The position numbers and the translations under genes are program-made. A stretch of 64,000 bases of DNA from sequence record PX246731.1; one strand, 5' to 3'. The notes below the pieces were generated by a model. It did not search any database and was not told the origin of the DNA. It saw only the letters and a program-made list of their open reading frames with translations. Shown in pieces: positions 911 through 58,800 of this stretch (position 1 is its first letter; each line of letters opens with the position of its first letter). This stretch comes from a phage.

Positions 911-1240
911 ATGAAAACTTTACTTAAAGGTATTGCAGTAGCTGCACTGATAGCTTTGGCTCCAAATGCACAAGCAATTGAGCCAGAACCAATTCTGGAA
1001 GGTGCTCAGGCTTATCTGGATGACACTCGCGATGCGTTCGGACAAGGATTCTTCATGGGCAGTATGATCTCTTACATCGAGAGCACAAATAACTGTGTTC
1101 CGGATGGTATGAAGTATTCCGACATTCTACCTAAGATTGCCAAAGTAGTTATTTATGATTCTGCAATCCTCAAATTGAAGAATACATCTCAAATTGTCGT
1201 GTACTCCGTACACAAGGCATATCCCTGCACTAAATCTTAA
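911..1240 (+). CDS. small secreted/periplasmic protein (signal peptide)
   Basis: N-terminus MKTLLKGIAVAALIALAPNAQA has a basic n-region, hydrophobic core and AxA cleavage motif. Confidence 0.45.
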   Translation: MKTLLKGIAVAALIALAPNAQAIEPEPILEGAQAYLDDTRDAFGQGFFMGSMISYIESTNNCVPDGMKYSDILPKIAKVVIYDSAILKLKNTSQIVVYSVHKAYPCTKS

Positions 1241-1274
1241 TCAGTAATCCCATTAGCTTTAGGAGAGTAAGTAA

Positions 1275-1588
1275 ATGGCAAGCATCGACTCCTTGACTGT
1301 ATGTAATTCACGTCAAGCTCGTAACTTTATTATCCGTGCCCTGAAAGCAGGTAACGTACCGTTCCTGACTTCATCACCTGGCATGGGTAAATCTGCAATC
1401 ATTCGTTCTATTGCAGAAGAATTTGGTATGAAGTTAATTGACCACCGTCTATCTACTTCTGCCCCGGAAGACCTGTCTGGCTTACCTTTCCGTAATGGTG
1501 ACCGTGCAGAGTTTATTCCATTCGCTGACTTATTCCCCATTGAGGGAGACGAAGTACCAGAAGGCTATAATGGCTGGCTCTTATTCCT
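1275..1588 (+). CDS. MoxR-like AAA+ ATPase, exon 1 of 3 (join 1275..1588, 2471..2804, 3671..4075)
   Basis: RBS aggag upstream of ATG 1275. Walker A SSPGMGKS. The ORF ends LLFL just before an in-frame stop; the Walker B continuation DEFN is found 882 nt downstream in frame. Confidence 0.7.
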
Positions 1589-2470
1589 TAACTGACGGGG
1601 CTTCATGAGAGCAATCTCATGTCGAAAGTTACCTAAACAGGGAACCTCTTCTAATATGGTTGGCTCAGGTGTATACTTGAGTTTTAATCAATTGGAGACA
1701 ATCCTGTGCTAAATAATGAAATTTGGAAAGATGTGCCCGACTTACCGTATGAAGTTTCCAACTTTGGTGTAGTACGCCGAAAAGAAGGAAAGTATAAATA
1801 CAAAAATAGGACACATATAAAACCGTATCTTAATAACAAAGGGTACTACTGCGTGAACCTGTACATGAATAGTAAAGTGTACAAATATCAAGTTCATCGT
1901 CTGGTAGGCATAGCCTTTGTACCAAACCCCAATAACTATCCAGTTATTAATCATATAGATGGAAACCCTCTTAATAACCACGAGAGTAACCTGGAATGGT
2001 GTACCCAGTCCCAAAATATTAAACATGCTTGGGATACTGGATTATTGTCAAACAGACATGCCAACGCTAGTAACAAAAATCGTGGAGGCTCCTCCAAATA
2101 CGTAGGTGTATCCTGGAGTGAGCAAAGACAAAGATGGTGTGCCCATATAAGGGTTAACAAGAAATCTATTGGTTTGGGACGTTACAAAACAGAGGAAGAG
2201 GCTGCCAAAGCCTATGACTCCTACGTAACTAACAACAATCTTACACAGATTGGGTACAGTACCAATTTCATTTAAACGCCAAACGACTATCGAAAACACA
2301 CAGAAATGTGGAAGTGAGTAGAGTAGGGTGCAAGCCAATGGCACTCGAAACGGTAACAGCCCTAGCAATAGGGCTTTGATATAGTCTCCTCTGCATGGTG
2401 ACATGCAGCAGTCAGTATTCACTGAGTGTACTGACGGCATTAGTAGTTGCGAACTAATGTGAAGATAATG
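1589..2470 (+). mobile_element. Group I intron 1 (self-splicing intron carrying an HNH homing endonuclease ORF)
   Basis: 5' exon ends in U (1588); intron ends in G (2470). GNRA hairpin catgaga-gcaa-tctcatg at 1604-1621. Core 2276-2470 contains gatatagtct (group IA S-element-like) and hairpin ctgcatg-gtga-catgcag at 2391-2408. Strong similarity with covariation to the second element at 2805-3670. Confidence 0.7.
1706..2275 (+). CDS. HNH homing endonuclease (NUMOD4 / HNH_3-type, intron-encoded)
   Basis: GTG start at 1706 with ggag RBS. N-terminal EIWKDV..YEVSNFGVV (NUMOD4-like), HRLVGIAF and NHIDGNPLNNHESNLEW (HNH), C-terminal AP2-like YVGVSW..W.A.I. Lies inside intron 1. Confidence 0.75.
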   Translation: MLNNEIWKDVPDLPYEVSNFGVVRRKEGKYKYKNRTHIKPYLNNKGYYCVNLYMNSKVYKYQVHRLVGIAFVPNPNNYPVINHIDGNPLNNHESNLEWCTQSQNIKHAWDTGLLSNRHANASNKNRGGSSKYVGVSWSEQRQRWCAHIRVNKKSIGLGRYKTEEEAAKAYDSYVTNNNLTQIGYSTNFI

Positions 2471-2804
2471 CGACGAGTTCAACTCAGCTAAGAAAGAAGT
2501 AGTAGCTGCTGCATACAAGCTGATTCTCGACCGTATGACTGGTCAGAAAAAGCTTCATCCTAACGTGATGATTGTCTGTGCTGGTAACAAAGCTACCGAC
2601 CGTGCCATTGTTAACCCATTGGGTACTGCAATGCAGTCTCGTGTGGTTCACTTTGAAATGGAACTTAACTTCGACATCTTTGTTGAAGACGTAATGATTC
2701 CTCAGCAATGGGATGAACGTCTGGTTGCATTCTTACATGCTAACCCAGGTTACCTGCATGACTTCGACCCAGCACACAAGAACAAAACGTTCTGTTGCCC
2801 ACGT
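2471..2804 (+). CDS. MoxR-like AAA+ ATPase, exon 2 of 3
   Basis: Begins DEFNSAKKEVVAAAYKLILDR, completing Walker B (LLFL|DEFN). Contains sensor-1-like VMIVCAGN. Proposed end at 2804 (U, codon boundary), 15 nt upstream of the intron 2 GNRA hairpin, the same spacing as in intron 1. Confidence 0.6.
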
Positions 2805-3670
2805 AAACACACTGCGATTCAGGGGAGTAATTCCCTGTCTAAAGCTGCCTAAAACGGGAAACACTTTACATTCTGTTGCCTAAAGGTAATATGTAAAAGT
2901 CAATCCGTTACTAAATTGGGAGTCAGCATGAGTGAGATTTGGAAAGATGTTGTTGAATTTGAAGGTTTATACCAAGTATCTAATACAGGTAAATACCGTA
3001 AGCATGAGTCACGCCAATCTGTAAATAAGTACAGAGAAGTTAAGCCCCTTATCAGGGCACTTAACAAGAACCGATTAGGTTATCTGTATGCCTCTATGTA
3101 CAAAGATGGGAAGACTCATAAGAAAACTATTCATCAACTCGTTTGTGCAGCATTTAAACCAGGCTTTAAGTATGGTGATCCTGTTAACCACTTAGATGGT
3201 AATAAGGAGAATAACCATGAAGACAACCTGGAACCATGCACCGCACAAGACAATAATCTCCATGCTCATAAAACTGGGCTAGCCCCTAAACCAGGTAAGT
3301 CTGTGTACCACAATGTGCACATACGTCGTAGTAAGTATAAAGATAAAATTTACACTTATTACGAAGCCAAGGTTAAAGATAATTACAAGGTAGTATTCTA
3401 CAAACAGTTTAAAGATGAGGTAGCTGCTGCTAAAGCCGTAGATGCCTATCTGGACTCAATTGGGGATACTAGACGTAAACGTAATTTCTGACTTCCATAA
3501 ATGTCCAACGACTATCCCGGGGAGGGAGTAGAGCATAAGCCAATGATGCTCGAAATGGTAGCCACCCTACAGGTAATGCTAAGGGTGTTGATATAGTCTA
3601 GTCTGCATGGTGACATGCAGCAGTTCATAAGAGAACGGGCGTAGTCTTGCGAACTACGTCGAATATCACG
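2805..3670 (+). mobile_element. Group I intron 2 (self-splicing intron carrying an HNH homing endonuclease ORF)
   Basis: GNRA hairpin cagggga-gtaa-ttccctg at 2820-2837. Core 3520-3670 shares gatatagtct and the ctgcatg-gtga-catgcag hairpin (3603-3620) with intron 1. 3'-terminal hairpin cgtagt/actacg (3640-3658) covaries with intron 1 attagt/actaat (2439-2458). Terminal G at 3670, 12 nt after that hairpin in both introns. Confidence 0.65.
2928..3491 (+). CDS. HNH homing endonuclease (NUMOD4 / HNH_3-type, intron-encoded)
   Basis: ATG 2928 with gggag RBS (ORF track starts at TTG 2916). SEIWKDVVEFEGLYQVSNTG (NUMOD4-like), HQLVCAAF and NHLDGNKENNHEDNLE (HNH). Distinct sequence from the intron 1 endonuclease. 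Confidence 0.75.
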   Translation: MSEIWKDVVEFEGLYQVSNTGKYRKHESRQSVNKYREVKPLIRALNKNRLGYLYASMYKDGKTHKKTIHQLVCAAFKPGFKYGDPVNHLDGNKENNHEDNLEPCTAQDNNLHAHKTGLAPKPGKSVYHNVHIRRSKYKDKIYTYYEAKVKDNYKVVFYKQFKDEVAAAKAVDAYLDSIGDTRRKRNF

Positions 3671-4075
3671 ACCTGGGACTTTGTTAATAAAGACCTCAAG
3701 AACCTACCGGAAGGTGCTCTGCCTGATGAGGATTCTATCTACTATGCAGGACACGTTACTGCTGGTAAGGCTACAGAGTTTGTTCAGTTTACACAGGTGT
3801 ACAATCGTATCATTACGATTGAGAAAGTAGTCAAAGACCCACTGGGCTGTGCACTACCGGAAGATAACAACCTGTGCTGGGCTACTGTTAACCATCTGGC
3901 TAACAAAACTACTGAAGAGAACTTCGCTGATGTTCTTCAGTACATTGAACGCTTTAAAACGTTCACCCATAAGATTCTGTACTTCCGTACAGTAGGCAAT
4001 GCATTACCAGATCTTCAGGCTACCCCTGAATGGCGTAAGGCTGCTGCTAATATCTCTCGCTATATTCACGGATAA
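3671..4075 (+). CDS. MoxR-like AAA+ ATPase, exon 3 of 3
   Basis: Frame is open from 3614; first exon codon proposed at 3671 (acc, TWDFVNKDL...) immediately after the intron terminal G. Stop at 4073-4075. The three exons sum to 1053 nt (350 aa). Confidence 0.6.
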   Translation, partial: TWDFVNKDLKNLPEGALPDEDSIYYAGHVTAGKATEFVQFTQVYNRIITIEKVVKDPLGCALPEDNNLCWATVNHLANKTTEENFADVLQYIERFKTFTHKILYFRTVGNALPDLQATPEWRKAAANISRYIHG

Positions 4076-4082
4076 TCACAAC

Positions 4083-5258
4083 ATGAACCAATTTCCTCAG
4101 CACACACTTAGTGATGAACAACTCATGCGTGAGTATGACCGTATTCAGGCTCAGGCCTTCCTGGGCAAGTCTGCTGCGTTCTTTGGTTCATTGCTGTGTA
4201 GTCTTAAGTTCTCATGGAAACGTGAGGATTGCCCCACTGCATGTACTGATGGGATAGAACTCCATTTCAACCCAGACTTCTTTATCTGGATGTGTCCAGA
4301 TGCAAGAGAAACAGTATTAATGCATGAACTATGGCATGTAGCATATCTACATGACATCCGTCGTGGAAGCCGTGACCCGGAAATCTGGAACCAGGCTTGT
4401 GACCACTTCATTAACCTTCAGTTAGAAGAAGATGGTTACAAGTTCACTGGCATTGACAAAGGCATTTGCAAAGACCCTCAATATAAAGGATGGGTCGAAG
4501 AAGACATCTACGATGACCTGATGAAGAACCCTCAGAAAAGGCAGAAGCCGTCAGGGGGTGCTGGAGCAGGTCTTGCTGGCGACATGAAATCCCCCACTTC
4601 GGGGCAGTCCCAGGGTGCTGTTGTCAACAACGTAGTACGTGCAATGCAGAGCCAAAAGATGGCTGGTGGAACAATGCCCGGTAAGGGTGCTGGTCGTATG
4701 GAAGAGGTTATTACCCAATTCCTTAAACCAGTGGTTCCATGGCAGGAAGTTCTCATGAACTTCTTTACCGACATTGATGACACACATTATACGTGGGCCA
4801 GACCTAACCGTCGTTACACTGACATCTATCTACCTTCACTGGAAGATGATGAAGGTCGTTTACGCCACTTAGCCTACTTTGAGGATGTGTCTGGTTCTAT
4901 TAGTAGTGCTGACTCTCTGCGTTTTAACTCAGAGGTCGCCTATGTTAAGAGCCAGTTTAATCCTAAGAAGATGACCCTAATTACCTTCGACGATACTATT
5001 CAAGAAGAGATAGACATCACTGAAGAAGATACTTTTGAAGAGATTAAGATTACTGGTCGTGGTGGTACAAACCTGGAACCAGTACGCGAGTGGATTATTA
5101 AGAATAAGCCAACCGCTGCAATCATATTCTCCGATATGTATGTTCGCCCAATGGAAGAATTGCCATTTGATATCCCTATCATCTGGTGTGTTCTGAATAA
5201 TCCTAATGCTACCGTACCTTTTGGGGAGGTAGTTCATATCCCTAAAGGAATGAAATAA
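4083..5258 (+). CDS. VWA-like domain protein with HExxH metallopeptidase-like N-domain (MoxR partner, DUF2201/COG3864-like)
   Basis: HELWH motif (HExxH) in the N-domain; C-terminal VWA-like region (MTLITFDDT..ITGRGGTN). Sits directly downstream of the MoxR ATPase, the canonical MoxR-VWA arrangement. Start chosen at the first ATG after the exon 3 stop; ORF track shows an upstream extension from 3999. Confidence 0.6.
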   Translation: MNQFPQHTLSDEQLMREYDRIQAQAFLGKSAAFFGSLLCSLKFSWKREDCPTACTDGIELHFNPDFFIWMCPDARETVLMHELWHVAYLHDIRRGSRDPEIWNQACDHFINLQLEEDGYKFTGIDKGICKDPQYKGWVEEDIYDDLMKNPQKRQKPSGGAGAGLAGDMKSPTSGQSQGAVVNNVVRAMQSQKMAGGTMPGKGAGRMEEVITQFLKPVVPWQEVLMNFFTDIDDTHYTWARPNRRYTDIYLPSLEDDEGRLRHLAYFEDVSGSISSADSLRFNSEVAYVKSQFNPKKMTLITFDDTIQEEIDITEEDTFEEIKITGRGGTNLEPVREWIIKNKPTAAIIFSDMYVRPMEELPFDIPIIWCVLNNPNATVPFGEVVHIPKGMK

Positions 5259-5800
5259 TGGAAACACCCATAAAAACCTGTCGCAAGTGTTTGCAGGAGT
5301 TCCCGGCTACGCTTGAGTTCTTTTACAAGAACGCTGGTGGCAAATATGGGGTAACTCCACGGTGCAAATCATGTGTTAATGAGGATAATGCAGCCGGGCA
5401 TGCAAAACGTTTGGCTGCTAATCCAGAAAAGATACGTGCTCAAGCTGCTGCCCGTAGTAAAAAACATTATTACAAAGATTTGGAACAATCGCGTGAACGA
5501 CAGTGTATAGCTCAAAAGAAAGCGAGAAATGATCCCGTAAGGGGAGAACGTATTAAAGCACGTAAACGTGCAAATGGTGCTGGGCTAACACCGGAAGAGA
5601 TACAACAACTCCTCATTAGTCAAGGAGGCGTGTGTGCTATCTGTGGTGATCCACCTACCGATTTAGACCATTGCCATAAAACAGGTAAAGTTAGATTTCT
5701 ACTATGTAAGCATTGCAATAGAGGACTGGGTGCTTTTAAAGATAAGCCAGAACTAATGCGAAAAGCTGCACAACTACTGGAAGACTTCAATGATAATTAA
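5258..5800 (+). CDS. Endonuclease VII-like HNH nuclease (free-standing homing-endonuclease-like)
   Basis: Paired Cys motifs: CRKC..C.SC at the N-terminus and GGVCAICGD..DLDHCHKTGKVRFLLCKHCNRGLGAFKD (Endonuclease_7/HNH-type zinc site). Start overlaps the upstream stop (TAATG). Confidence 0.65.
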   Translation: METPIKTCRKCLQEFPATLEFFYKNAGGKYGVTPRCKSCVNEDNAAGHAKRLAANPEKIRAQAAARSKKHYYKDLEQSRERQCIAQKKARNDPVRGERIKARKRANGAGLTPEEIQQLLISQGGVCAICGDPPTDLDHCHKTGKVRFLLCKHCNRGLGAFKDKPELMRKAAQLLEDFNDN

Positions 5801-27581: not shown

Positions 27582-27890
27582 TTTGAAGTCGCCAGGTACT
27601 TATGGCAAACGGGTAGTAACGAACTAGTCATTCGTCAAACGCCCACCTTATTATGAGTCAGCAAGAACGCCTTCACTTAAACTTAAACAAAAAAAAGCTT
27701 AACGCAATAATTATGTAGGGGTATGTAAGGATTGCGAAGAAGGAGCCAGTTAAAGCCTGGCATGACTCAACTTATTAATAGAGAACATAGTCCTGATTGC
27801 ATTGCACTCTAAAGACAATGCCGGTGAGACAGTCCGGCACTCTAATTATTGTAAACATACAAGACTCGTTAGCTGCGTTAAAGCTACTAA

Positions 27891-27918
27891 GTCCCTCTTC
27901 GGAGGGACTTTTTTATTT
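27891..27918 (+). terminator. Rho-independent terminator
   Basis: Stem gtccctc(27891-97)/gagggac(27902-08) with 4-nt loop, followed by ttttttattt. Confidence 0.7.
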
Positions 27919-27978
27919 GAGTATTAATAAGCGCAACCATGTTTAAGTACAAATTCAAACCACTCTATGAGGCTAATA

Positions 27979-55831: not shown

Positions 55832-58800
55832 TTAGCTTAAGGGTTTTAATTCCCAACGCTTGTCGTAGTAATGTGCAAAACCACAGTAGGATACAGACAG
55901 ATGAACGATTGCATTTGTTAGGTTTGCCGTAGGCAATGCGATTCTAACAAATGTTTTACCATCTCGTACCAGTTTAGTTACTGTTATCCCGGAAAGGGAT
56001 TTATCACCAGCAATCATATTAGACCAGACTGCACCAGTGGCTACATTTTCCTGTGTGCTACCGGATAGCCCAAACAGAATACTGCCACCTGACTCAGTAC
56101 CAGCCAAACCATTTTTGTTAACTGGAATGATATCTGCACGTCCTGCAATGAAACAACCATCCGGGATTTTAGTCTCTTCCCCTACAGCACAAAGGAATAT
56201 ATCTAAAGCCCTGTTCCATGGAACCAGTACAGTAGCTTCCTTATGGTCAACACTTCTGAAGAAGGAATTACTATTAGAATGGATTGCTGACAAAGTAGTA
56301 CCCGTGTACGAGTTACGACCTTGTGCAATATCTTCTCCATATACCCTGCCCCGGTAAAGGTTGCCACGGTTATATGTAGATATTGTGTAGGAACCATCGC
56401 TAACTTTTAAAAATTCAAAATTACTGTTTAATGTAACACTACGCCCAATGTACTGGTTACTTGGGGAAGTAGAATTCTCCATTAATTTAATGACATAGTC
56501 AGAGTTAACGTAACCACTGTCAAAAATAATCCTACCAGCCTGGTACTCATTAGCAGGCAACTCAATAAAATGAGTTACACCAGTATTCATACTAGACTGA
56601 ATCCAACAAGAGACATCTCTGAACACAATTGTTGTTTGTGCAGCAGGAGAAGCTAACTGCGAGAAGTCTAATGCCACTGGACCATTTATCCCTTCAATAC
56701 CAAAGCCAGAGAACGAGAGGCTACGAATATCCCCATAGAATTTATGAGGTAAAGTACAACCATCTGCTGCAATGTTGCTGGTAGCAACATACATGACAGG
56801 TGTTCCATTATTAGCTGGCTCATACGTAGTACGGTTAATGGCAGCTCCCCACAAAAAGCCAATGTCGCAATGGTGTGCCCAAATAGATGACATATCCGTA
56901 CTAGTACTTCCACTGATACCGAATCCATAAGTACAGTCATATGCATACAAATTGGTCATAACACTGACAAAGCAAGCCATAGGTAAGGCGAACTTATAAT
57001 GGTAAAAATCTACATCATGCACATTAAATGTTTTACCACCACCACCGATGCCATTATTTTGGTCGAATGCGCTAATAATAAGAGGGCTACCCACATAAGC
57101 TGAATCAGCATTTCGGAAAGAGAGGCGACCAATAGTAATATTGTGTCCCCATCTGGTAGAGATGAATCCACCTTTACCTGATGTATAAATAATACTTTGT
57201 CTCTGACCAAGACCCATAATAGATAGAGATCTACCAGTCCAACGTGCATTACTAATATCAATCTGTGTATCACCAATATACATTGGCTGGGTAATTTTAA
57301 TATTCAACCCATTAGCTACAGCATACGAGTAAGTTGCCTGCAAAGCATCCCCATCATTATGCACACCAGACAGGTCAGCAGCCCCCATGCTTGGTGCTTT
57401 AGGGTACGGAGTTCCCTGAATGGTGTTGCCGTCGATATATGGGGCATCCATCCACGCACCAAACATAGATGGGGTAACTTCGGTGCTACCCCGTAAATCA
57501 CGTACCCAACGCTTGCCGGATGCAGTAACAATAGTCATACCATTGTCATCTGCTGATGTAACAGATGGTTTATATACAAAATACCCACCACCTAAATCGC
57601 CTGCATTGGTTGCAATCATACCGTCAGTATGGGCTTCTACGTAAATACGTTGTTCAGCATAAGTGGGTTCAATTGTTCGCAGTACTGCAATATTGGGGCA
57701 TGTACCAATCAGCTTACTACCATCAGGCTTACTCAGGTCTACCCTGAGACTAACACCAGAATTAGGAACTTCCAGCAAATCTACGGTAATGTTGCCCGGG
57801 CTGTAAGTTAACTGACCGTTAGATATGGAACTAATATAGACATTGGTCGGTAATGAAGGTAGACCATACAATTTCTGGGCAACTACGTCATAAATAATCT
57901 TCTTACCGTTCAGGTACTGAGTAGTGTTAGTACTCAAAATGACTTCAGTATCTTTAACGTTAGCAGAACGAGCCACTTCCTGAATGGTACGGTCAGACAT
58001 AATCAATGTCTCAGACTCACCACCAATCGTAACAATCAGACGGTCATTAGTTGCCAGTGGTTCAGTTAACAAAATACGCTGGTTAGCTGCATCAACGGTA
58101 TAAGAGTTTTCAGCCAGACCAGCATAGTAACGGACACCATTCTTATAGATAGCAGGTACAGACTGGAAGGTATATGGAATCTGAATTACCTGTTCACCAC
58201 CAGAAGCATAACCGCCATTATACAACCAGTTAATCTGAACCCAGTCAGTTACATTGGGGTTATCTGGAACAGCAGGAGTACCAGTCAGGAACAGATGTAC
58301 TTCATCACCTGGTTCCAATGCCTGAGCCAGGGTAACAGTTAATGTAGTCGCATCATAAGTAAAACCGTATCCAACTAAATTAGTGTAACCCCCTACTACA
58401 ATCATTGGCACACCAACGGTTCCAACAGGAACTGCAATAGTTGTTTCACCTCCTATAGCAGAACCATTGTTATAAGTGTAAGGGATGTATGGAGGCGATG
58501 TCTTACCATCAGTATCCTCACCACCACCAGAGTTAGTTGTAGCAACCAGAATCCAGGAACCAGTAGCAGCCGGGTCATCCGGAATTACACCAGTACGATC
58601 ACCATCTACATACAGATAGTCTGTAACAACTCGTTTATTAGTATTATCAAAACCATACAGTCGTGCGTAGGAGGCACTGGTAGTCATGGCCTTAAGTTCT
58701 GCCTCAGACTGTACACCAATAACCATTCCATATTGATTCAAGAAATCATACAGGAGTTTCAGGTTACCAAGGTTGCAGTACACAGTACGAACCACGTGGT

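Follow-up and report, generated by a model that had tools for sequence, protein, structure and literature searches.

Two predicted group I introns carrying HNH endonuclease genes interrupt the gp24-type ATPase gene of a Gamaleyavirus

Results

An AAA ATPase gene divided into three exons

The window, that is, the whole 64,000-nucleotide stretch of DNA analysed (sequence record PX246731.1), comes from an N4-like phage of the G7C type, a Gamaleyavirus. Its ATPase region contains three ORFs at 1275–1595 (with the C-terminus GWLLFLN directly before the stop codon), 2535–2852, and 3647–4075, which are separated by HNH ORFs at 1706–2275 and 2916–3491. The interrupted gene encodes an AAA ATPase homologous to gp24 of phage N4. 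The gp24-type gene is intact in G7C and most relatives, and uninterrupted homologues are widespread. BLASTN comparison with the intact gp24 of St11Ph5 gave three collinear blocks (1275–1589, 2472–2805, and 3671–4075), which, like the three ORFs, agree with the two breaks of the ATPase frame noticed in an earlier sequence-only reading of this DNA. The junctions proposed there also held: joining the exons at 1588/2471 and 2804/3671 yields 1053 nt coding for a 350-aa protein, which is identical to the uninterrupted St11Ph5 gp24 at 346 of 350 positions, and the exons contain neither frameshifts nor stops.

All exons, introns, and endonuclease genes described here lie on the plus strand. Exon 1 (1275–1588) comprises codons 1–104 with bases 1 and 2 of codon 105 and contains the Walker A motif (SPGMGKS), and its 3′-end falls inside the Walker B strand (LLFL/DEFN). 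Exon 2 (2471–2804) supplies the last base of codon 105 and codons 106–216, opening with C/GAC GAG (DEFN, Walker B) and closing with CCA CGT (PR), while exon 3 (3671–4075) opens with ACC TGG GAC (TWD) and consists of codons 217–350 and the stop codon. The predicted ligated junctions are ...TTATTCCT/CGACGAG... (peptide LLFL-DEFN) and ...CCCACGT/ACCTGGG... (peptide CCPR-TWDF). At the DNA level the first junction can be shifted by 1 nt to 1589/2472, giving an identical protein, but 1588/2471 was preferred, as it alone provides a terminal G, and the resulting intron starts with UAA..., like most related introns. With these boundaries, the U at the end of each 5′ exon and the G at the end of each intron were read at both inserts as earlier claimed.

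The family assignment of the ATPase relies on motifs readable in the sequence (SPGMGKS as Walker A, LLFLDE as Walker B) and on the Pfam AAA model, which the protein passes with 27.2 bits (cut-off 21.2). The AAA_5 model gave 17.4 bits, just under its cut-off of 22, NCBIfam had no match to the ATPase, and the closest solved structure in the PDB was the AAA domain of midasin (E 4e-4). Some GenBank records label homologues as "MoxR-like ATPase", and the neighbouring ORF at 3999–5258 matches DUF2201_N and the VWA-like DUF2201 (E 1.8e-56 and 3.4e-35). The "MoxR-like" name given in the earlier reading is thus reasonable with respect to the Pfam AAA match and the VWA-like neighbour, but loose considering the AAA_5 score and the midasin structure.

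Anatomy of the two introns

Both inserts are group I introns of the T4 nrdB/td type (IA2-like), and helices P1 to P9.2, including P7.1 and P7.2, could be drawn for each. Intron 1 (1589–2470, 882 nt) begins with UAACUGAC and ends with ...GAUAAUG. Its P1 (1585–1600) pairs the exon sequence UCCU (1585–1588) with the internal guide GGGG (1597–1600), with U1588·G1597 as the splice-site wobble. The 5′ ribozyme half (1604–1720) extends from P2 (1604–1621, loop GCAA) through the 5′ strand of P3 (1628–1633), P4 (1638–1642 with 1702–1706), and P5 (1647–1650 with 1695–1698) to the 5′ strand of P6 (1715–1720). The 3′ half (2267–2470) starts with the 3′ strand of P6 (2267–2272), continues with P7 (2285–2289 with 2382–2386), P7.1 (2297–2310), P7.2 (2326–2346), the 3′ strand of P3 (2352–2357), P8 (2358–2375) followed by J8/7 (UUGAUA), P9 (2391–2408, loop GUGA) with P9.1 behind it, and P9.2 (2438–2459), and terminates at G2470.

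Intron 2 (2805–3670, 866 nt) begins with AAACACAC, ends with ...AUAUCACG, and is close in sequence to the T4 nrdB intron in its 3′ part. P1 is formed by the exon sequence CGU and A2805 with UGCG (2813–2816), the splice-site wobble pair being U2804·G2814. P1 is short, 4 bp in both introns, and in intron 2 it consists of three exon base pairs and one A-U pair. The 5′ half (2820–2922) includes P2 (2820–2837, loop GUAA), the 5′ strand of P3 (2844–2849), P4 (2854–2858 with 2904–2908), P5 (2863–2866 with 2897–2900), and the 5′ strand of P6 (2917–2922), while the 3′ half (3492–3670) includes the 3′ strand of P6 (3492–3497), P7 (3510–3514 with 3594–3598), P7.1 (3516–3526), P7.2 (3531–3551), the 3′ strand of P3 (3557–3562), P8 (3563–3587), P9 (3603–3620, loop GUGA), P9.2 (3640–3658), and the terminal G3670. 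The two P2 elements are the GNRA-capped hairpins that had been seen 15 nt past each 5′ splice site. It was also correct that each gap holds an HNH ORF followed by a core of about 190 nt, but the ribozyme additionally includes about 130 nt upstream of the ORF, from P1 to the 5′ strand of P6.

The endonuclease genes are looped out of P6 in both introns, and both ORFs scored over the cut-offs of the Pfam NUMOD4 and HNH_3 models. The intron 1 gene (1706–2275) encodes a 189-aa protein with NUMOD4, HNH_3, and AP2 domains, which matched I-HmuI (PDB 1U3E) with an E value of 2e-12. A candidate ribosome-binding site of this gene (GGAG, 1694–1697) lies in the 3′ strand of P5, and its last codons constitute the 3′ strand of P6. 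The intron 2 gene (2916–3491; NUMOD4 and HNH_3) likely starts at the ATG at 2928, located 3′ of a GGGAG ribosome-binding site in the 5′ strand of P6, and its TGA stop codon (3489–3491) is inside the extended 3′ strand of P6.

Evidence for group IA2 ribozymes

The prediction of three exons and two HNH-carrying group I introns was supported by every computational test run, namely, frame restoration, U/G boundaries, homology to T4 nrdB, covariation in P1–P9, independent MFE folding, and presence or absence in relatives. In a structural alignment of nine introns, which was made by hand so that its pair counts are biased towards the model, 98.6% of the pair cells were paired compared with 73% after shuffling and about 40% when the partners were slid, and double (compensatory) changes were detected at 42 of the 58 pairs. 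All six pairs of the long-range P3 covaried in this alignment, P7 was invariant, and the U·G pair at the splice site was found in nine of nine introns. P9.2 was excluded from the covariation count because MAFFT disturbed its columns; counted by a separate script, it was 100% paired. The extra helices typical of IA2 introns, P7.1 and P7.2, are present in both introns between the 5′ strand of P7 and the 3′ strand of P3, with compensatory changes in each. Unguided MFE folding of the ORF-deleted introns recovered P2, P3–P6, P8, P9, and P9.2 in both cases (z-scores −3.5 and −3.9), and the fold of intron 2 additionally gave P1, P7.1, and P7.2.

At the sequence level, the 3′ core has homologues by BLASTN in 616 phage records; one of these matches, 94% over 51 nt, is with the T4 nrdB intron, and the tail of intron 2 could be aligned with the known 3′-end of that intron. 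A profile built from seven introns other than those of the window matched the whole 64 kb only at 3498–3666 (E 7e-37) and 2271–2468 (E 3e-23). The profile of the 5′-half matched 1589–1713 (E 1e-11), and this match opens at the first base of intron 1. The same profile gave no match in intron 2 by nhmmer even with the filters off, leaving structure as the support for the 5′-half of this intron. A by-eye search of the L1 loops for a P10 complement to the first bases of the 3′ exons found nothing convincing in either intron; P10 is weak in the T4 introns too.

The Rfam scan, a check proposed together with the earlier reading, returned nothing at the gathering threshold in the whole window. RF00028 did match at both introns, with 32.6 bits (E 7.6e-6) and, at intron 1, 18.9 bits (E 0.096), both under the threshold of 50. 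The T4 nrdB intron, run as a control in the same mode, reached 35.7 bits and was also under the threshold, as were all ORF-bearing relatives, while the ORF-less relatives scored 72–96 bits. As a proven self-splicer fails and the ORF-less relatives pass, the low scores were not counted against the introns. Two further occurrences of the motif GAYATAGTC, at 56492 and 60382, were considered as additional intron cores and rejected: they have no intron context and their number is near the chance expectation. Scanning for promoters and terminators gave nothing above chance.

Distribution among related phages

The introns are patchily distributed: among about 100 related records, window included, intron 1 occurs in three phages (U1G, NAN33P5, and the window; 95–100% identity, with intact exons) and intron 2 in two. 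The two-intron allele was found only in the window and in the unannotated record of NAN33P5. Compared between these two, the introns show 100% and 99.2% identity and the flanking exons about 91%, and the break in identity lies at most 3–5 nt from the junctions. Introns 99–100% identical within exons of about 91% point to recent homing, with a recent passage of the introns between N4-like phages that have diverged.

Insertion sites in the gp24 homologues are located after codon 67 (Shigella phages pSb-1 and PW8), 105 (intron 1), 119 (Klebsiella phage Pylas), 215 (Pseudoalteromonas phage pYD6-A), and 216 (intron 2). The P7–P7.2 block is about 90% identical between intron 1 and the pSb-1 intron after codon 67. 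A broader scenario can be put forward tentatively, and we consider it possible rather than probable: gp24 may be a gene repeatedly contested by mobile introns throughout the Schitoviridae, with at least four, arguably five, sites occupied by related IA2 introns, some with mosaic cores, and with the introns of the window as very recent arrivals. The introns would then move to new sites within the gene, and the HNH enzymes might act in the competition of co-infecting Gamaleyaviruses as in the marker exclusion of T-even phages.

Discussion

A predicted splicing and homing pathway and its alternatives

Considering these results, we regard it as very likely that the inserts at 1589–2470 and 2805–3670 in the gp24-type ATPase gene of the Gamaleyavirus are mobile group I introns belonging to the T4 nrdB/td (IA2) lineage, and that they are removed by splicing to give a single mRNA. 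Each intron RNA would fold into a bipartite ribozyme, formed by P1–P6 upstream and P6′–P9.2 downstream of the HNH ORF. By analogy with the family, an external guanosine would attack after the U at the end of the exon, whose partner in P1 is a G, then the freed exon would attack after the terminal G of the intron, and the joined exons would provide one mRNA for the 350-aa ATPase. Each I-HmuI-like HNH enzyme may nick or cut the intron-less gp24 alleles of co-infecting relatives, and repair would copy the intron into the cut allele, that is, homing would take place. As the ribosome-binding sites are located in the P5/P6 helices, translation of the endonucleases is probably limited by the folded intron, as in T4.

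An intron-like appearance is not proof of splicing, since an intron-like HNH insertion in the DNA polymerase gene of a G7C-like phage is reported not to be spliced (bioRxiv 10.1101/542787). The inserts of the window could similarly be non-splicing HNH cassettes, with the ATPase made as two or three polypeptides that reassemble, as proposed for the 10Gb DNA polymerase insertion of G7C-like phages and for the NrdA of Aeh1. The sub-threshold Rfam scores and the databases, where the fragments are kept as separate proteins or families (annotations of U1G and pSb-1; phrog_16335 and phrog_21479), would be consistent with this. However, both inserts retain every core helix and the conserved elements P7 and J8/7, and their differences from the homologues include compensatory changes. 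Moreover, the first start codon of exon 2 (ATG, 2535) is downstream of the DE residues of Walker B, exon 3 has a TTG inside the intron as its only start, and the site of intron 1 splits the Walker B strand (LLFL/DEFN), presumably an unlikely place for a viable split of the protein, so we judge such reassembly highly improbable.

That only one of the introns is competent for splicing, the gene being inactivated or leaky and gp24 dispensable, appears highly improbable. The lower Rfam score of intron 1 and the weak P1 of intron 2, with its three exon pairs, could be taken in this sense, but the P1 of T4 nrdB itself is likewise 4 bp long, intron 1 has been kept at high identity in U1G, NAN33P5, and the window along with intact exons, and the open frame and near identity of the spliced product to intact homologues argue against decay of the gene. 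Joining of the three frames by inteins, that is, by protein splicing, or by programmed translational bypass has practically no likelihood: nothing but the interruption itself speaks for it, and it is effectively refuted by the ribozyme cores and by the in-frame stops directly after the exon ends (TGA at 1593–1595). The HNH ORFs, furthermore, occupy frames of their own, and the domain search revealed no intein or Hint domains. Splicing of both group I introns accordingly remains the preferred reading.

The practical value of this reading lies in annotation. In the records of U1G, pSb-1, and PW8, the exon fragments figure as individual "ATPase" or "hypothetical" proteins, and they seeded separate PHROG families (phrog_16335 and phrog_21479); minus-strand ORFs in the intron cores, such as gp64 of pSb-1, are probably spurious. 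ORF-bearing group I introns of phages, T4 nrdB included, escape detection at the Rfam gathering cut-off. The biological gain is an allele with two introns and a clear case of their recent transfer, not a new kind of element.

Comparison with known introns

The supposition that group I introns were undescribed in N4-like phages proved wrong: such introns are already known in these phages (PMC5746245; bioRxiv 10.1101/542787) and in the gp24 gene itself. For vibriophages, an HNH-split gp24 was described in 2013 (PMC3670811), the gp24 homologues of Pylas and pYD6-A are annotated in GenBank as joined CDSs (the Pylas note reads "ATPase split by intron"), and the HNH endonuclease of U1G is annotated as "Phage intron". 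The introns in the gp24 homologues of Pylas, pYD6-A, U1G, pSb-1, PW8, and the vibriophages JA1 and VchO139-I share the gene, the lineage, and the HNH ORF with those of the window, but these phages have one intron each and the window has two. The intron of Escherichia phage U1G sits at the same site as intron 1 and is 95% identical to it, while the pYD6-A relative of intron 2 (77% over 233 nt) is inserted one codon upstream.

Within the same genus, the intron in g16 (RNA polymerase II subunit A) of the G7C-like phages N4G2 and Sz33 was shown to be spliced by RT-PCR, sequencing, and mass spectrometry, despite having no significant Rfam hit (bioRxiv 10.1101/542787). Compared by description, it is also an insert of about 800 bp with a predicted homing nuclease, but its host gene differs from the ATPase gene of the window. 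The endonucleases share the NUMOD4 and HNH architecture of I-HmuI, an HNH nicking endonuclease encoded in an intron of Bacillus phage SPO1; the intron 1 protein differs from I-HmuI by its C-terminal AP2 DNA-binding domain.

The core of the T4 nrdB intron (group IA2, I-TevIII), like that of its relatives td and sunY, has the architecture seen in the window introns, P7.1 and P7.2 included, and the J8/7–P7–P9 segment of nrdB is nearly identical to that of the window introns. In addition, nrdB and intron 2 have in common the P9.1 strand UUCAUAAGAGAACGGG and, ahead of the 3′ splice site, the tail UCGAAYAU..CG. As in nrdB, the P6 loop accommodates the ORF, a U precedes the 5′ splice site, the intron ends with G, and an HNH-type endonuclease is encoded. 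In contrast, the host gene is an AAA ATPase gene instead of one for ribonucleotide reductase, the window introns have a 7-bp GNRA P2 hairpin and a longer P5, and their HNH genes are full length and of the NUMOD4/I-HmuI type, while I-TevIII of T4 is truncated. Splicing is proven for T4 nrdB and predicted for the two introns of the window.

Exon junctions and the host gene

The ORF list contained the three ATPase fragments of the sequence-only reading, with one ORF in each gap between them (189 and 191 aa), and the interrupted gene was a homologue of phage N4 gp24. Megablast with the 1200–4140 region matched 103 GenBank phage records, nearly all of them Gamaleyavirus (G7C-like, N4-like; Schitoviridae); the top match was the unannotated record NAN33P5 (96% identity, 99% query coverage), and in most of the 103 records the three coding blocks adjoin within approximately 1.19 kb. 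Intact homologues were found in G7C, PD38, IME11, many other phages and St11Ph5, whose undivided gene (350-aa product named "ATPase, gp24") was aligned to the window by BLASTN in three blocks, 1275–1589, 2472–2805, and 3671–4075. Joining the exons at the junctions proposed earlier, 1588/2471 and 2804/3671, gave 1053 nt and restored one 350-aa frame, identical to St11Ph5 gp24 at 346/350 residues. The predicted introns thus span 1589–2470 and 2805–3670, and the expected U at the 5′ exon ends and G at the intron ends were both present (T before each insert, G closing it). Although shifting junction 1 by 1 nt later leaves the protein unchanged, the terminal G is obtained only with 1588/2471; with this junction intron 1 begins UAAC, and UAA starts 6/7 of the other aligned introns. 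The first base of exon 2 is C in all three intron 1 carriers and T in intron-less alleles.

The label "MoxR-like" is usable in a loose sense. The Pfam family AAA passed the cut-off, AAA_5 stayed slightly under its own, and an NCBIfam search of the ATPase gave no match. The only solved structure matched by the ATPase was a midasin AAA domain. The neighboring gene encodes a DUF2201 metallopeptidase/VWA-like product. Directly 3′ of the VWA-like gene, a free-standing ORF (5258–5800) carries an Endonuclease VII domain (E 7e-19), and it looks like another mobile nuclease slot because relatives have "HNH endonuclease" genes at the matching position.

Group I identity of the introns

The Rfam scan suggested by the sequence-only reading found nothing at the gathering threshold in the whole window, but RF00028 in E-value mode gave sub-threshold matches at 3447–3620 (intron 2; 32.6 bits, E 7.6e-6) and 2098–2408 (intron 1; 18.9 bits, E 0.096), where the P7 strands (GACUA, UAGUC), J8/7 and the P9 hairpin were visible. 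As a control, the T4 nrdB intron, whose self-splicing is proven, was scored likewise and gave just 35.7 bits. ORF-bearing relatives (pSb-1, U1G, Pylas, Sureiya, and Yep-phi) reached 19.6–26.8 bits, while ORF-less ones scored 71.9 (KIL1) and 84 and 95.6 bits (RudolfGeigy terminase gene); therefore the low score is the expected effect of an ORF inside P6 and does not count against group I identity. A weak match to the sRNA STnc100 at 27837–27920 (27 bits versus a threshold of 47, E 0.07) is probably due to chance.

The 182 nt located 3′ of the second HNH ORF matched 616 phage records by BLASTN, among them the nrdB introns of T4 (94% over 51 nt) and RB3 (90% over 51 nt) and sequences of other phage groups, some of which lie in genes whose annotation shows an interruption, as with the Yep-phi DNA polymerase and RudolfGeigy terminase genes. 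A profile HMM made solely from seven non-window introns was searched against the 64 kb: its 3′ half hit exactly two places, 3498–3666 (E 7e-37) and 2271–2468 (E 3e-23), and its 5′ half hit 1589–1713 (E 1e-11), beginning at the predicted first base of intron 1. The corresponding half of intron 2 escaped detection by this profile. Escherichia phage RudolfGeigy has two ORF-less introns of the same lineage in its terminase large-subunit gene (record L010, 749–1027 and 1385–1611). Each structural element of these and of the KIL1 intron can be aligned with its counterpart in the window introns, and the RudolfGeigy pair offers handy compact references for the family.

Ribozyme structure

P1–P9.2 were parsed in nine introns (the two of the window, pSb-1, Pylas, pYD6-A, T4 nrdB, RudolfGeigy terL, KIL1, and Sureiya nrdB), and every parse was verified against the actual sequence; that of T4 nrdB measured 598 nt, in agreement with the length of that intron. 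Standard pairs occupied 98.6% of the pair cells (shuffles 73.4%, slid partners 37–43%) and both sides had changed in 42/58 pairs, counts that are biased toward the model, the alignment having been fitted by hand. All pairs of the long-range P3, which links both halves across the ORF (1628–1633 with 2352–2357 in intron 1, 2844–2849 with 3557–3562 in intron 2), covary. P7 shows no variation, and 9/9 introns have a U.G pair at the splice site. The GNRA-capped hairpins noted earlier 15 nt past the splice sites correspond to P2, which starts 15 nt into each intron. As a check independent of the hand-fitted alignment, unguided ViennaRNA folding of the ORF-deleted introns recovered P2, P3, P4, P5, P6, P8, P9, and P9.2, and additionally P1, P7.1, and P7.2 in intron 2; fold z-scores were −3.5 and −3.9, and 0/100 shuffles folded as well.

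Intron-encoded endonucleases

Both ORFs (1706–2275 and 2916–3491) are looped out of P6 and encode NUMOD4 and HNH_3 domains, with AP2 besides in the intron 1 product; the two proteins are 34% identical, and that of intron 1 matched I-HmuI (1U3E), an intron-encoded nicking endonuclease (E 2e-12). In intron 1, GGAG lies upstream of the GTG start within P5 3′ and the final ORF codons form P6 3′, and in intron 2 the P6 5′ strand contains a GGGAG ribosome-binding site, with the stop codon in the extended P6 3′ strand. By analogy with T4, the folded precursor probably limits endonuclease translation. Upstream of the intron 2 endonuclease gene, a sigma-70-like TTTACA-16 nt-TAATAT (2865–2892) could be an internal promoter, but the region has fewer such matches than expected by chance.

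Distribution and mobility

Besides the window, intron 1 is carried by NAN33P5 (100% identical) and U1G (95%), and intron 2 by NAN33P5 (99.2%). The gene is interrupted at other positions by related introns: pSb-1 and PW8 have one following codon 67, Pylas has one following codon 119, and that of pYD6-A lies one codon ahead of the intron 2 site. When the window is compared with NAN33P5, intron identity is 99–100%, while that of exons and flanks is 90.7–92.2%, and exon mismatches are present within 3–5 nt of the junctions. This mosaic is a signature that points to recent horizontal transfer and marks the predicted intron as the mobile unit independently of the structural model. The intron 1 site falls in Walker B, between LLFL and DEFN, and homing introns typically occupy such highly conserved sites. 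A 79-nt block of intron 1 (2272–2350, J6/7 to P7.2) is 90% identical to the pSb-1/PW8 intron, and the remainder had no megablast match to it, which suggests that the cores may be mosaic.

In U1G (L002, 559–879), PW8 and pSb-1 (L003, 576–782; compare 1275–4075 of the window), the gp24 exon fragments have protein entries of their own, and two PHROG families appear to have been seeded by exon fragments: phrog_21479, whose 68 positions match pSb-1 exon 1 in length, and phrog_16335. Both the entries and the families are artefacts of databases in which the introns went unrecognised. Antisense ORFs over the ribozyme cores, pSb-1 gp64 "hypothetical protein" (L003, 1629–1805, minus) and 2048–2518 of the window (minus, 156 aa), are probably spurious.

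Splicing and precedents

A non-splicing arrangement of "genes in pieces" was the main rival, and it has a precedent within the genus; it is unlikely here because the cores of both ribozymes are preserved and show covariation, and because no usable start codon is available to the downstream exons. We consider it very probable that two HNH-bearing group I introns split the ATPase gene into three exons, as the structural reading had it, and their splicing is predicted.

The suggestion that such introns might be new for N4-like phages did not hold. In 2013, HNH genes that interrupt the JA1 and VchO139-I homologues of gp24, DNA polymerase and gp43 were suggested to be introns (PMC3670811). In G7C-like phages the g16 insert, for which Rfam had nothing, splices according to RT-PCR, sequencing and mass spectrometry, and the g39 insert does not (bioRxiv 10.1101/542787). 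In GenBank, Pylas bears the note "ATPase split by intron", pYD6-A a joined CDS, and the U1G HNH gene the label "Phage intron". The allele with two introns may be unrecorded, as may, for Gamaleyavirus, an insertion at the intron 2 site. Multiple group I introns within one phage gene are known already: Twort orf142 holds several, and the annotation divides the RudolfGeigy terminase gene into three. Since P7.1 and P7.2 are present, both window introns belong to subgroup IA, like those of T4 nrdB, td, and sunY.
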